A stretch of DNA of 64,000 nt from Candidatus Magasanikbacteria bacterium RIFCSPHIGHO2_01_FULL_33_34 (GTDB lineage: Bacteria > Patescibacteriota > Patescibacteriia > Magasanikbacterales > UBA922), in the NCBI GenBank assembly GCA_001782825.1, contig MFPS01000007.1:148487-212486 (forward strand), written 5' to 3'. Below are positions 24,075 through 35,106 of this stretch, piece by piece. Both the position numbers and the translations under genes were made by a program. The notes under the pieces are model-generated. The model made no database searches. It was not told the origin of the DNA and was given only the letters and a program-made list of their open reading frames with translations. Within the stretch, counting starts at the first letter, position 1. Each line of letters opens with the position of its first letter.

Positions 24075-24638
24075 TCAAATCTTTCCTGAACCTAAAGGGT
24101 TATATCCATTAGTAATTTCATAACCATCCGAAAAGCCATCCCCATCTGTATCAGATTTAGTCGGGTCAGTTTTATATTCTTCCACTTCTAATTTATCCGA
24201 TATACCATCCCAATCAGTATCAAATTCTGTATTACTTATACCTAATCTTTCTTCTTCAATATCCAAAACACCATCATTATCCAAATCATCATCTTCCAAT
24301 CTCAAAGAGGTAACTCCTATATTTTGTTTTTGTACTTTTTCAATTGGCTTTTTAACTTCCACTTCTACGCTCGTATCCTCTGTCTCACTTATTTTTTTAA
24401 TATCTTTTTTTACAAAAATATTAGTAAAAAAAATTAAATATACTAATATACTTATCAAAATAATGATACCACTAATAATCAAAATCATTTTAAATTTTGA
24501 TTTTCTTTGTGGATAGTCAAGTTCATTGCTATATACATTTTGATCCACTATTTTATTGTCATCTTGATATTCATTCATCTTATATTTAATTAAATTATTA
24601 TAAATATTATGGTTCAATATATGGCGGATCAACCACAT
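24075..24638 (-). CDS. Single-pass membrane protein with TSP3-like Ca-binding repeats ending NGYNPLGSG
   Basis: TM MILIISGIIILISILVYLIFF; DDDLDNDGVLDIEEE…TDWDGISD…SDTDGDGFSDGYEITNGYNPLGSGKI; start overlaps the giant gene's 3' end by 32 nt. Confidence 0.5.
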   Translation of the reverse strand: MWLIRHILNHNIYNNLIKYKMNEYQDDNKIVDQNVYSNELDYPQRKSKFKMILIISGIIILISILVYLIFFTNIFVKKDIKKISETEDTSVEVEVKKPIEKVQKQNIGVTSLRLEDDDLDNDGVLDIEEERLGISNTEFDTDWDGISDKLEVEEYKTDPTKSDTDGDGFSDGYEITNGYNPLGSGKI

Positions 24639-33600: not shown

Positions 33601-35106
33601 AGTTTCTCCAAAAAAATTACCCAATATAGTTACCCAATTTCCCTCAGCACCATCCCATGGATTGATTTCATTTATTATTGGCACAGCAAGACACATACCC
33701 ACATCCTCGTCACAAACACCTGATAAACAATCTGAGTCCCCAGTACATGTACCTACTCCACGACAACTTGGATCAGCACCAAAACCATCTGGAAATGAAC
33801 AAGAATTAGCAACCACATCAAATTCTGAAACTACAGTTCTAACATTATTATCAATATCATGTACATTTAAAGTAATTGTATAATATGAATTTGGATATAC
33901 AGCATCTGTCCTCAACGGATAAGTGCCATCTACAATTAAATAATATATAAAATTATATGGATTACCTAAAACCGCCTCAGATCCTCTTGATAAACTTGGC
34001 CCATCATAAACTACTCTATGTGGCGCTCCAATTGGAGTAGAATCATTCTGATGACGTTGTACAATCATTTCTACATATCCAACACCATGATCATCAATTA
34101 TATTGGCTCCAATTTGATAACTGCCATTTTGTGGCAAAGCAATCCTACTACCAGTGGCCAAACCACGATAAGTAATATCTCCAGTATTTGCGTCCAAATC
34201 ATCAATTATATCCAAAACTTCTGGTGCTTGGTTGTCTATAATAGCAACATCTACAAAAAATCCTGCATCTAAAGGAAAACCACCACAAATTGTATCGGTT
34301 TCTAAATCAATTCCTCCCGAAGAAACTAAATCTGTACTTACAGATATATCATAATCACCCAAGTAACCGGCAAGCGGTCCATTTGGAGTCAATTCAACCA
34401 CTTTTCTTTCTGCATCAATAAAAGTAATATCAAATTCTGCACTTACATCTAATAAATCTCTTTCAACTACAGCAAATACATCACCAACTGTTGTATATGA
34501 TGGATCTAATCCTTGGCTAAATACTGCTCGAATTGCAAAATTATACATTCCAGTTGCTCCAGCTGGTGTATGTGGAGTAATTGATTTTACAACAAATTGA
34601 TCATCAAGATTTGTACACGATCCAAAAGTACCACCTCCACAACATTGTGGATTTGCAATACTACAACCTCCCAAATCAGCGCATGATTGCGTAGTACCAT
34701 TGGTACCATATCCAGTTGCACCAGCTAATCGAGTCAATACAAATGATGTTATAGCAAAAGCAGATAATATTATCACTAATCCTATAGCGCCATTTATTAA
34801 AATCTTTTTAGCAGTAGCTAATTTTTGTTCATTGCCACCTGCTGTCATATATACTACTCCACCATATATAACAATAACTAATGCAATGGTTCCTAAAATT
34901 CCTAAGACCACTTGTATAATTCTAGCAATTGTGGCTCTCAAATCTTCTTCACCCAAATTTATCTGATCACCAACTTGTTCCAAACCAAAATCAGATTGGA
35001 TTGTACCAGCTTGTACATTCAAGGTACTACCAAATATAAAAAAACTTGAAAAAACAATAATCAATGCGACTAATAATATTTTTATTTTTTTCAAATTTAT
35101 ATTCAT
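24607..35106 (-). CDS. Giant (3499 aa) secreted Cys-rich surface protein: N-terminal signal peptide + two-helix VirB2/TrbC-pilin-like module, IPT/TIG-like domains, many Myxococcus-type cysteine-rich repeats
   Basis: Uninterrupted 10.5-kb ORF. N-terminus MNINLKKIKILLVALIIVFSSFFIFGSTLNVQA, then two hydrophobic helices separated by GGNEQKLATAKK. IPT-like PIINEINPWDGAEGNWVTILGNFFG. Multiple CGNG/CGDG…EECD(D)G units, e.g. CTSAEECDDGNNISGDGCANNC, spread across 24.7-30.7 kb. Confidence 0.85.
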   Translation of the reverse strand: MNINLKKIKILLVALIIVFSSFFIFGSTLNVQAGTIQSDFGLEQVGDQINLGEEDLRATIARIIQVVLGILGTIALVIVIYGGVVYMTAGGNEQKLATAKKILINGAIGLVIILSAFAITSFVLTRLAGATGYGTNGTTQSCADLGGCSIANPQCCGGGTFGSCTNLDDQFVVKSITPHTPAGATGMYNFAIRAVFSQGLDPSYTTVGDVFAVVERDLLDVSAEFDITFIDAERKVVELTPNGPLAGYLGDYDISVSTDLVSSGGIDLETDTICGGFPLDAGFFVDVAIIDNQAPEVLDIIDDLDANTGDITYRGLATGSRIALPQNGSYQIGANIIDDHGVGYVEMIVQRHQNDSTPIGAPHRVVYDGPSLSRGSEAVLGNPYNFIYYLIVDGTYPLRTDAVYPNSYYTITLNVHDIDNNVRTVVSEFDVVANSCSFPDGFGADPSCRGVGTCTGDSDCLSGVCDEDVGMCLAVPIINEINPWDGAEGNWVTILGNFFGETEGNVFFDGVLANTPSCGGADVWHNDYIIVEVPGVGLPEGGGIEVRVDHNLFVVDPIANPDFFDTTGNDRGPIGAFTKNNTIIRPGLCSVLSNEPTEPYNGTNAGLPGTAVIASGQNLGNVTDTITFGGIQGSVDAWADNQIDAVVPENLNRGWVGVIARVGAESSNGIPYRIMSEDELVSPLIESIDPENITRESYVTISGQRFGNTPGVLYACTDTGMLDCLILNTSLPLECGTTWTNTQIIAEVPNGFPIGSRYLVVENGLPPNLRSVPSEADRLNVIAGAPLPSICALSPVYGSAPLPDGHAGLNIIGVNFSINPTLYFWARNSEVTNNNTWLALNGAVVPAGPELQSVLTQIPVDYAGPIPPLVQSNPLINGDGFSMQSGPIKVVANLGAGPESNSVSYAVTDCRELSTIPTGMHCCSEGGAQGSLLYESIACPDVPRDGGYVWRFTTGVIPEFRRVVEECNNNDFVFSPTPLRTHNDGENVCLNRQVAVQFTGPMEEASFVGNVSLFTCGTDDLVADPQVIFDEPSGCIPVAEVSNNYTDGGADSNSILIIRDLFPAVNGFGDLLPNTWYHVELSNDINGISSDMVLGVLTDFLTPLQRTRPCSDTTAYCFDFKTGPVGTECILEDVAIKPIDYTVARLGLVLNNRYPVDSNVEIVYQIFGRGDQECSMVSVSNYEWDWSTDLPLDATVTEEFDDTKATAFVLQEPVGGTVVIHAEDVPDAEFGADSNLNIILGPPRIVDYWPNCGEACSNAGIGARFNRDVDPSLYATGIHLYRCGNSAEGGGNTCINAIADFDPDAPVAPALPELNFNVFNDTNRSVAEIIPDTALPGDLLDPDTNYLVYFDDSIRSVARVSEVTGDILALGPALEPFMWTFKTKADGTFCMADNIDVRPDPFISYFVGEKTKYSAFAFTNPDQCSSSGQRLNPWGFGWNWGTADAEVAVVSNFQSAGELKPYCGLGCLPSGSDIVSGGISTFCGNGIVEPGEDCDIAVVGEVAGDSCSINCLRPGNTNATCGNSILETNLGEECDPGLTSSTRVGCSNTCLHIGSTRDIEEASTGQPICDGSEVTVGEDCEPGLNGEVLGRTCTSNCLHIGTGLVQEWCDDRSAWQDTDECRQAVSQCGNGELEFGEECEIIGGQFHLFDGDFGVPASDNGTVIPGIFVADFDNLCSSNCLLQNICDSVIPAPFYCDPNTQEGCKPDCTLHGSSIDRYTIPSLCGDGVVGDGEYGWCEYTVAEMAGFAIPGQNPVQSVRSVGTRLLLDPGTQLMSTLIESNIVRVRGELADLIPAQQTQLSDEADYALACGFTEYEQPDLANNHNDCRGNVNNTLGVGSNSCCYDRPERVDEYPYDGAGILDPNVVCLNSLVSVTFDGNINETTLLNNVWIARGYEVAPPVDCVDITSDIDGTLAYENNNKKSDSIFINIWNTIKRFFTWATGGQAKASITNVATVGSWCRQNLFSGLPLVNKTTDVDGNVIESRVDFYLNNLLEQNAYYTVLLKGGNNGIKDVRGVGIRSPLNNVVARTGEIDDSFMFRTGDDVCKINSINVIPAGYFYDTPNTDYNFTAVVESTSGQLISPIPGVYDWEWFWTPSADTLFTIDPDIITTGNIPNRIIASTELEGSRTAGAHATVLVDTDLVDSQVGQTFTGTAELVSFFCENPWPPRDYFPFEDEVGNNDGTTAGIFDGSTMLGTSNVNGDFFNFEMSYCADSGLVGNVVDDLPYLRPFVFNIASGLPDAENLKRFLFFNSVNDDVIGLQVFLTDSAPTILEKETLTQWFRRKIGEPTGFNQISVDGYEAMTNGSNYYISAANRPGLGELYNNIFVFSINENAQQNTYDVFEQLINSLEFNSNISNDLFCENAVDISCSTDFDCRDLLGNPLGGGTGMCSADQTKMRRDWSRFITIRNAQVAMNGYVDFGSEAPQLRAGTYIPGRTRSLWPSWGNLGQEIGGGVGIDPINRWTTCNYCHVPGSLVDGVEQLCSTDVDCAGAGEVCVTVDSQTCWDEVNSRFICPAVSSVLEYRPDVANDYMIYGRPEYFGLSDLGSFIDVSHFQIGSMCGVSGSTESPLSGSCGNGIVNGTEQCDPPGQLVDTLNACAVDVNGVPISGTLARVCNSSCNWQDSGCDVDILCGNGRVDGLEQCDDGALNGTPGNCSAMCTFSASFCGDNVVNSYCAFNNVNCTGNPNACVTSCGTNRNCLAMNVCSPVEYCDIGANNGAYLTPPTFALPSNSCSANCKQLGPRCGDGILHTGNSGAICLNNSQCFSNNCSAGVCTSAEECDDGNNISGDGCANNCRNEASAPVDNVTPDLGNCGNSNIDAGEVCDRGDGINGVQCVPGYNQGCNFCSWDCREVLYIEPNAYCGNENIDVISLVDYGGSGNINDPCTVATQVADCDSNYCSPAGFCQPLGYCTANTDCNSGYCVDNFCSRTEVCEYVRPNCVGANCPNPYIVTNSGTFELDQCSRRSGNYSLENGTYTTLTGNYECRNSCGFLYNNCIQCGSKRLTSGGIDPSLRILNPMISLHYSGGQWGTDPNGLFAKFYFRDYTEPNGPYFLTNSGSSLLVNNRVQFYAGPDLVDVMYVPSNIFYPWGETDILNGIIADNACNGSYYMCLTPQAGTENCLETSPESEFVYSYDVNNELNTVVNDFIVSPALPEGQIRVVLKWTREESQEFGGTDFGLGILSADDTLGGTDRFMQRNMATPKQICIGTELVGGYWIPDYNFANTTRSCTVWPLGLGNEGFYMHDINEGEDTFIQSMTINIPLNTAPNSLLNYGPYAVFVEAQSVAGGVPMAYFDDSDLEVYVYEYRETPAGAESFRTVFRPDITYVIEDALKSSNPAARYWHLFNIDRDATSGDYEILPLNRIATSAEQIQTGGVIGELSICGDGRIDGSEICDPAIPGQNNCLNTCDGYAVCGNGSREANEECDGSSLNCGFFEECYSNCECGPLIILPPAYCGDGIIQPPGEECDGSNAGCYALETCNVDCRCVIDVVDPPYIEP

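Follow-up and report, generated by a model that had tools for sequence, protein, structure and literature searches.

What does a bacterium with a genome of roughly 1 Mb do with a single gene that fills about 1% of it, lies among housekeeping genes and specifies a protein that begins like a pilus subunit? The gene in question is found in a 64-kb stretch of DNA, called here the window, from an ultra-small groundwater bacterium, Candidatus Magasanikbacteria (Patescibacteria, or candidate phyla radiation, CPR; class ABY1), and its product of 3499 amino acids (aa) is referred to below as the giant protein. Patescibacteria depend on attachment to host cells. In Southlakia epibionticum, the one species tested genetically, a type IV secretion system (T4SS) with VirB2-like pilins is essential, and T4SS adhesins are not known from the phylum. 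Epibiotic growth of Saccharibacteria requires several adhesins (PMC10633639), and large Cys-rich extracellular CPR proteins have been proposed to serve in attachment (PMC4736985). The analysis presented here indicates that small pilus subunits are not the only proteins with a ‘T4SS pilin’ module, which in one clade appears as the conserved anchor of one of the cell's largest proteins, for which a tethered surface fibre is the explanation we favour, with roughly even confidence.

The open reading frame (ORF) of the giant protein extends over positions 24607..35106 of the minus strand, from an ATG start and with zero internal stops; its 10,500 nucleotides (nt) make up 16.4% of the window. This agrees with an initial annotation, made from the letters of the window alone, which had described a single 10.5-kb ORF occupying 16% of the stretch. 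Minus-strand orientation puts the N-terminus of the protein at nt 35106. The ORF is embedded in a long series of minus-strand genes, in a window of ~33% G+C where the GC skew is strongly negative across the region. The protein is already public (OGH59474.1, UniRef100_A0A1F6LJJ5) but unannotated, being named either ‘IPT/TIG domain-containing protein’ or ‘hypothetical’.

A putative T4SS pilin module at the N-terminus

Two elements of the N-terminal region are located as follows.

35008..35106, minus strand: predicted Sec signal peptide, aa 1–33, with cleavage between NVQA and G, read from the sequence by eye
34738..34941, minus strand: T4SS_pilin (PF18895) module, aa 56–123, with Pfam and NCBIfam matches and 21 invariant alignment columns

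The translation begins with MNINLKKIKILLVALIIVFSSFFIFGSTLNVQA, after which the mature chain would start at GT; a K-rich n-region and a hydrophobic core precede the NVQA/G site, and a cleavage site of the A-x-A/Q type is kept in the giant orthologues, and the signal peptide named in the initial annotation reads as one of the Sec type. The two hydrophobic helices it had described are also present, TM1 (transmembrane helix 1, ~aa 58–86) and TM2 (~aa 106–127), and they surround the short basic loop MTAGGNEQKLATAKK, exactly as it had quoted it. Signal peptide, two helices and basic loop form the typical PF18895 layout, which can be read in the giant protein and is conserved in the alignment.

The Pfam scans covered the whole protein and ten overlapping 450-aa fragments, the NCBIfam scans the fragments. 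PF18895 scores 39.9–42.1 bits against a cut-off of 26.6, matching aa 56–123 to profile positions 5–71 of 71, and NCBIfam NF045849 (‘Mbov_0395 family pilin-like conjugal transfer protein’) passes marginally with 40.4 bits against 40, an equivalog name that is not transferable to a protein of 3,499 aa. The initial annotation had seen here the topology of TrbC/VirB2-type conjugative pilins and of the CPR ‘T4SS pilin’ family, and it is the second attribution that the profiles bear out. PF04956 (TrbC/VirB2 proper) has no match at E ≤ 1 in the whole protein or its fragments, the module profile finds zero solved pilins at E ≤ 10 among the sequences of the PDB, and hhalign of the module against a small VirB2/TrwL/TrbC alignment returns a probability of 0.8% in what is a shallow and weak test. 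What connects the module to TrbC/VirB2 is its topology, the naming of the Pfam and NCBIfam models and the T4SS setting in which relatives occur in other organisms. There is no class III prepilin leader (G/FTLxE followed by a single N-terminal helix, IPR012902-type) in aa 1–140, and no Pfam family of the N_methyl or pilin type IV kind matches the giant protein. The assignment of the module to the CPR/monoderm ‘T4SS pilin’ family is supported by its passing the T4SS_pilin cut-off, and the generic transmembrane hairpin against which the initial annotation had cautioned is not what was found.

The module represents 2% of the giant protein and is its best-conserved part. Over 36 orthologues, the 50-aa bin at aa 51–100 has a mean identity of 60% versus 10–47% in the other bins, a contrast inflated by the retrieval of most of these orthologues through their module score and to be read with the restricted composition of TM segments in mind. 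When giants of six genomes are compared with one another, module identity amounts to 46–77% and whole-protein identity to 25–65%; for the giant of locus L002, found via its neighbour and hence least affected by selection, the values are 46% versus 25.5%. Invariant positions of the module include polar residues in or near the loop (D55, Y81, G83, M87, T88, G91, K95 and N105).

Directly after TM2, a conserved ATGY occurs at aa 130–133 (window 34708–34719, minus strand). The wider motif L-x-x-A-T-G-(Y/F) is invariant or nearly so in the giant and mid-size families, is absent from the small tandem pilins seen, and could be a processing or interaction site.

The small PF18895 VirB2-like pilins (PMC10633639, PMC12102498) resemble the giant protein in their signal peptide, two-helix hairpin and short basic loop, and the giant scores above the threshold of their family in a phylum where that family is abundant. 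However, these pilins are ~100–150 aa long and often encoded in arrays of 2–11 genes beside virB4, whereas the giant has 3,499 aa and is encoded in a housekeeping locus, with T4SS genes absent within 64 kb.

Family and orthologues

A module profile was built from the two copies of the window (the second is in an upstream paralogue, see below) and eight homologues, and searched against 1.84 billion cluster representatives. Its matches number 61,532 at E ≤ 1e-3 and fall to 725 at E ≤ 1e-30. Among the best 150 matches, 36 have 3,000 aa or more and an N-terminal module and 41 have 600–850 aa, the remainder being short proteins, several of which look like contig-end fragments, or proteins with 2–8 tandem modules. 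All 36 giants are collinear with the protein of the window, at 31–65% identity over 2,400–3,400 positions, and lineage-specific insertions (Laminin_G_3, LVIVD, CarboxypepD_reg) bring their sizes up to 5,289 aa. Among the matches, 39 are full-length orthologues of the upstream gene of 679 aa. Judged on sequence, the giant is a conserved orthologous protein with a conserved partner. Contig scans using its C-terminal and N-terminal 600 aa found no relative, and when 72,556 plasmids were searched with the module by tblastn, one weak match came up (E 8e-3), on a Bacillota plasmid and 4 kb from a VirB4-like ATPase.

Among the tandem-module relatives, P0019 (555 aa, six hairpins), P0020 (820 aa), P0021 and P0028 hold 2–8 tandem pilin hairpins per polypeptide; these could be ‘poly-pilins’, of which no description was found, in the form of polyprotein precursors or of multi-hairpin membrane proteins.

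Architecture of the extended body

Beyond the module, the features recognized in the giant protein are listed below from the N- to the C-terminus.

34324..34596, minus strand: Big_5 (SbsA-type) Ig-like domain, aa 171–261, 44 bits against a cut-off of 23.6
aa 445–475: small Cys knot, just before the IPT/TIG-like domains
32317..33681, minus strand: four IPT/TIG-like domains (PF01833), aa ~476–930, the fourth domain and the boundaries set by eye
30667..32316, minus strand: series of Big_5-like beta-sandwiches, aa ~931–1480, proposed from weak Big_5 matches (E 0.15 and 0.021)
29881..30663, minus strand: Cys-rich cluster 1, aa 1482–1742, with four clear and two partial CGNG...GE.CD units
28045..28425, minus strand: PsbP/Mog1/LpqN-like alpha/beta domain, aa ~2228–2354, conserved, without Pfam match
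26404..27387, minus strand: Cys-rich cluster 2, aa 2574–2901, with six clear and two partial units, TIGR02232 at 38.5 bits
24961..26154, minus strand: conserved C-terminal beta-sandwich region with a TerD-like fold, aa 2985–3382
24622..24960, minus strand: Cys-rich cluster 3, aa 3383–3495, with three units, in the closest relatives only

The IPT/TIG-like segments of the initial annotation are well founded, PF01833 reaching 49.8 bits against a cut-off of 20.9 in three stretches within aa 341–790. Each of the Big_5-like segments at aa ~931–1480 closes with a motif of the W-x-F-x-T type (GYVWRFTTG, AYCFDFKTG and FMWTFKTK) that is conserved in the orthologues.

As to the Cys-rich part, the initial annotation had described a long run of about 20 Myxococcus-type repeats at 24.7–30.7 kb. 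The repeat type is right, since TIGR02232 (myxo_disulf_rpt) exceeds its cut-off of 20.8 bits in three fragments (38.5, 28.4 and 22.3 bits), but the arrangement is not. A motif count, together with a hidden Markov model made from the units, gives 13 clear and ~4 partial CG(N/D)G...GE.CD units in three clusters, spaced by ~830 and ~480 aa of other domains. The interval named does correspond to the C-terminal 58% of the protein, but the repeats are discontinuous there. Cluster 1 has a TIGR02232 score of 20.0 bits, just below the cut-off, and cluster 3 an occupancy of 0.1–0.2 in the orthologue alignment. PF13948 (DUF4215), also named in the initial annotation, remains below its cut-off of 27 with a best score of 22.3 bits.

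Two conserved regions devoid of Pfam matches were modelled with AlphaFold2 from alignments of 15 orthologues. They model as LpqN/PsbP-like and TerD-like folds, neither of which suggests an enzyme. The likeness to TerD is at the fold level, without a sequence-family match to PF02342. Pfam at E ≤ 5 returns zero matches on the body regions without assignment, and no catalytic or enzyme family and no RTX repeat appear in the scans of the giant protein. A sortase signal of the LPXTG kind is likewise absent: the C-terminus, CVIDVVDPPYIEP, has no hydrophobic stretch with basic tail.

The composition is led by G (10.4%), N (8.0%), V (7.9%), D (7.5%) and S (7.0%). Of the residues said earlier to dominate (N, G, D, T, S and C), G, N, D and S are indeed among the leaders, but V is too, and the 156 Cys (4.5%), sufficient for ~78 potential disulfides, are enriched without being dominant. 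With 443 D+E against 157 K+R, the net charge is about −286. Only 37 of the 3499 residues are Lys (1.1%), although a genome of ~33% G+C should favour Lys codons. This scarcity suggests that Lys is selected against, perhaps to the benefit of protease resistance or metal binding.

A conserved five-gene cassette in a housekeeping locus

The giant gene belongs to a five-gene cassette comprising two genes for pilin-module proteins and three for small membrane proteins. Its four other members are the following.

35112..37151, minus strand: upstream paralogue, 679 aa, OGH59475.1, with signal peptide, the same pilin module and Big_5
24075..24578, minus strand: single-pass membrane protein with bacterial TSP3 repeats (Ca-binding type), 167 aa as publicly called
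23054..23920, minus strand: second TSP3-repeat single-pass membrane protein, 288 aa
21881..22975, minus strand: further small membrane protein of 364 aa, one TSP3-like motif, C-terminal domain without family match

The 679-aa paralogue scores 30.9 bits with PF18895 and shares with the giant just aa 4–136, at 51% identity; its Big_5-containing ectodomain is unrelated to the giant body. The giant gene is separated by 5 nt from that of the paralogue and by 28 nt from the downstream gene, distances that suggest co-transcription. The longest ORF of the 167-aa TSP3 gene extends to 24638, and the position of this gene downstream of the giant is conserved in loci L009–L012. TSP3 repeats exceed the Pfam cut-off in the 167- and 288-aa proteins, and the 364-aa protein has the TSP3-like motif only. 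Each of the three downstream proteins has a disordered N-terminus, which would be cytoplasmic, and a TSP3-type part that would be extracellular. Relatives hold a gene of 372–387 aa at the place of the 364-aa protein, and the three-protein arrangement (21881–24578) is conserved in relatives just 31% identical (L009–L012). That the 364-aa protein might share the LpqN-like domain of the giant was considered and rejected (BLASTP E 19, zero Pfam matches).

The flanks are of the housekeeping kind, with signal peptidase I, HisRS, an S21-like 81-aa protein and YqeY upstream, and YbeY, DAGK, FtsA, FtsZ, NrdR and pyruvate kinase downstream. In five genomes the order is mid-size pilin-module protein, giant, TSP3 protein(s), YbeY, DAGK and FtsA, with a ~375-aa protein ahead of YbeY and FtsZ after FtsA in relatives whose giants are just 31–32% identical, and the mid-size/giant pair occurs in 6 of the 6 genomes examined. 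No T4SS or type IV pilus assembly genes were found among the scanned ORFs of the window, nor T4SS genes in loci L009–L012.

A scan for promoters and terminators predicts fewer sites than in shuffled sequence and no terminator-like site after the giant gene. A near-consensus sigma-70-like site (TTGACA-17-TATTAT) is found at 37937–37965 of the minus strand, just upstream of the S21-like 81-aa gene. The layout suggests one long transcript for the S21-like, YqeY, paralogue, giant and TSP3 genes.

A hairpin-tethered surface fibre as the favoured explanation

With about an even chance of being right, we propose that the giant protein is a Sec-exported, hairpin-tethered and adhesin-like surface fibre with a role in contact. 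The precursor would be exported by Sec and lose its signal peptide to signal peptidase I, and the mature protein would be held in the cytoplasmic membrane by the VirB2-like two-helix hairpin. TM1 would cross from outside to inside, the Lys-rich loop would be cytoplasmic and TM2 would return to the outside, leaving both a short N-terminal segment and the C-terminal body of ~3,370 residues outside the cell. An external body is expected from the positive-inside rule, because the loop contains K95, K100 and K101 and nothing hydrophobic follows TM2; in addition, the relatives with 2–8 tandem modules require that both ends of each module lie on one face of the membrane. This proposed topology matches the known membrane topology of VirB2/TraA propilins.

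The body is acidic, rich in potential disulfides and made of binding-type modules, and an adhesin-like fibre is therefore its most economical reading. By a rough estimate the fibre might reach ~100 nm, a length comparable to that of the cell itself. It may mediate contact with, or adhesion to, a partner cell or surface, probably acting with its putatively co-transcribed ~680-aa paralogue and the three downstream TSP3-type membrane proteins. Ca2+ would probably rigidify the assembly, a stabilisation suggested by the TSP3 repeats and the TerD-like fold that go with the giant. The cassette may supply an attachment device needed by host-dependent bacteria.

Giant adhesins of diderm bacteria offer a first point of comparison. 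LapA, SiiE and MpIBP-type proteins have, as the giant does, several thousand residues, an acidic character, Ig-like beta-sandwich repeats and distal ligand-binding modules. The LapA-type adhesins are exported by type I secretion via a C-terminal signal and have an N-terminal plug in the outer membrane. In contrast, the giant possesses an N-terminal Sec signal and a membrane hairpin, has no RTX match and belongs to a monoderm-type cell. Closer in phylogeny, the Cys-rich proteins of Peribacteria (PMC4736985) resemble it in their signal peptide, great length, abundance of Cys, weak similarity to Myxococcus repeats and proposed function in attachment. They average ~1,655 aa, are encoded in a 14-gene cluster and have no described pilin-like anchor, whereas the giant occurs as one conserved orthologue whose anchor and partner genes are defined. 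Small pilins, Cys-rich CPR proteins and the adhesin-on-pilin design are known. What seems new is the pilin module on a giant body, the conserved pair and the TSP3 cassette; in the papers that could be searched, nothing was found on a VirB2-type module joined to so large a protein, on the pair or on the cassette.

Several points weigh against the surface fibre. About half of the giant body is without family assignment, and one of the AlphaFold2 models is modest (predicted local distance difference test, pLDDT, 62.7). It would be unusual for a host-specific adhesin to be conserved collinearly at a fixed housekeeping locus, and a structural envelope component fits this equally; a single orthologue conserved in this way is better explained by a core envelope or attachment structure than by a fast-evolving factor of host specificity. 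Finally, a passive anchor would not need the degree of conservation that the module shows, which hints at a specific interaction of which the surface-fibre reading makes no use. On the whole, the structural interpretation of the initial annotation is largely correct, and the function it put forward, host attachment or a pilus-tip adhesin, is a plausible proposal.

Alternative explanations

The hairpin might be a mere anchor or might be handed to a T4SS for incorporation into a pilus. A modular VirB2-type pilin would be the consequence of the latter, an explanation that we consider unlikely. The hairpins of the giant and of the ~680-aa protein would be pulled from the membrane by a T4SS (VirB4) and built into a conjugative-type pilus as its first, tip-located subunits or as a short stalk, with the giant body displayed as a tip adhesin in the stead of the VirB5/PrgB-type adhesins that Patescibacteria appear to lack. 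The module passes both the T4SS_pilin and the pilin-like conjugal-transfer models and, cytoplasmic loop included, is the most conserved part of the giant, but the conservation argument is inflated by the retrieval of most orthologues through module score, and a link at the sequence level to canonical VirB2, TrbC or TraA was not found. The source genome is listed as VirB4-positive in a published survey (PMC12102498), and that survey detected no PrgB-like adhesin in Patescibacteria (PMC12102498); the weak relative on a Bacillota plasmid also lies near a VirB4-like ATPase. Against this stand the zero T4SS genes among the scanned ORFs of the window and the housekeeping surroundings that the cassette has in all genomes examined. 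In favour, the T4SS of Saccharibacteria cannot do without its pilin arrays (PMC10633639; PMC12857230), but a T4SS pilus has so far been demonstrated in no patescibacterium, and an appendage of 3,370 aa would be tolerable at most at a tip.

A precedent for adhesins grafted onto pilin modules is provided by the modular type IV pilins PilB and PilC of Streptococcus sanguinis (PMC8179133), in which an N-terminal pilin carrier is combined with bulky adhesive modules presented at the filament tip. The giant resembles them in design alone. Type IV pilins combine a class III prepilin leader with one N-terminal helix, whereas the giant has a Sec signal and a hairpin and its carrier belongs to a different, unrelated pilin class, and the largest modular type IV pilin cited (PMC8179133) has 860 aa against 3,499. 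If the giant acted as a modular pilin, it would have the role of contacting the target cell in common with PrgB of pCF10 and with VirB5, although PrgB is LPXTG-anchored, VirB5 is a small helical tip protein, and neither is related to the giant by sequence or domains.

In its most specific form, this explanation would turn the giant and the ~680-aa paralogue into the first ‘modular VirB2-type pilins’, seeding or capping a pilus or stalk with an adhesin of >3,000 residues at its tip, a proposal that we regard as doubtful. Were the modular-pilin reading true, it would supply the otherwise missing VirB5/PrgB-like contact device of a T4SS essential for epibiotic growth, and some of the ‘VirB2 arrays’ counted in Patescibacteria would be such adhesin pairs. 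In Supplementary Table S3 of the survey, another Magasanikbacteria genome (GCA_000990355.1) has three MPF-T VirB2-profile hits far from the virB4 genes by gene number, each marked ‘No’ in the last column (PMC12102498), and the VirB2 counts in ABY1 may include large pilin-module proteins such as the giant pair. Either the module links T4SS machinery to giant adhesins, or part of the PF18895 hits are membrane anchors that should not be counted as pilins; both readings affect the annotation of T4SS repertoires in CPR genomes.

A second alternative, to which we attach the same low probability as to the modular pilin, is a core envelope or coat component that would have the giant, its partner and the TSP3 proteins as building blocks of a Ca2+-stabilised layer resembling a surface layer (S-layer) or of a spacer scaffold. 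Such a role would explain the fixed position beside ftsA/ftsZ together with the collinear conservation, and the conserved single orthologue in an invariant housekeeping synteny is in line with it. So are the Big_5 domain, which is the Ig-like domain of the S-layer protein SbsA, the extreme acidic charge, and the TSP3 repeats and TerD-like fold, both of calcium-binding types. However, a lattice with one membrane-tethered chain of 3,499 aa per subunit would be expensive, no S-layer homology or self-assembly domain was found in the giant protein, and the lineage-specific lectin-type inserts of the orthologues (Laminin_G_3, LVIVD and CarboxypepD_reg) are what is expected for ligand binding.

Far less probable is a pro-protein whose hairpin would serve for export or targeting only, the body being cut at ATG(Y/F) and released as a toxin or matrix protein. 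The near-invariance of L-x-x-A-T-G right after TM2 speaks for such processing, and canonical TrbC and VirB2 pilins undergo C-terminal processing. Nevertheless, the conservation of a motif is in itself no proof of cleavage, the cassette encodes no protease, and a toxin or enzyme domain was not detected.

Lastly, an assembly artefact or pseudogene, arising from collapsed repeats (an eventuality raised in the initial annotation) or from the fusion of several genes, has only the general suspicion toward very long repetitive ORFs in metagenome bins in its favour and is effectively refuted by the identical 3499-aa product called on 17 contigs of NCBI, JGI and ENA assemblies (the longest of 1.17 Mb), by at least 36 collinear full-length orthologues of 3.3–5.3 thousand aa, and by intragenic DNA repeats that are just 60–71% alike and form no tandem array.

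Other features of the window

A second, variable site for giant proteins lies near the cassette, in the interval between the KhpA-like gene and signal peptidase I. In a related genome (L001/L009, 458–6670), it is occupied by the gene of a 2070-aa RCC1/WD40-like repeat protein, and the matching site of the window (40085–40642) contains only tRNA-Val and tRNA-Ile genes. The tRNA genes of the window (Asp, Val, Ile and Leu) are situated at 9277–9351, 40240–40408 and 62456–62538, and a tmRNA (118 bits) at 6519–6926 of the plus strand; rRNA is absent from the window.

On the plus strand, 42460–58735 is devoted to nucleotide metabolism. The block opens with dCMP deaminase, dUTPase, thymidylate synthase, DHFR and thymidylate kinase, continues with the small subunit of carbamoyl-phosphate synthase, a 1067-aa ORF presumed to be its large subunit and aspartate carbamoyltransferase, and ends with a dihydroorotase-like amidohydrolase and dihydroorotate dehydrogenase. 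A published account describes the de novo synthesis of pyrimidines as unusual in CPR bacteria (PMC4736985).

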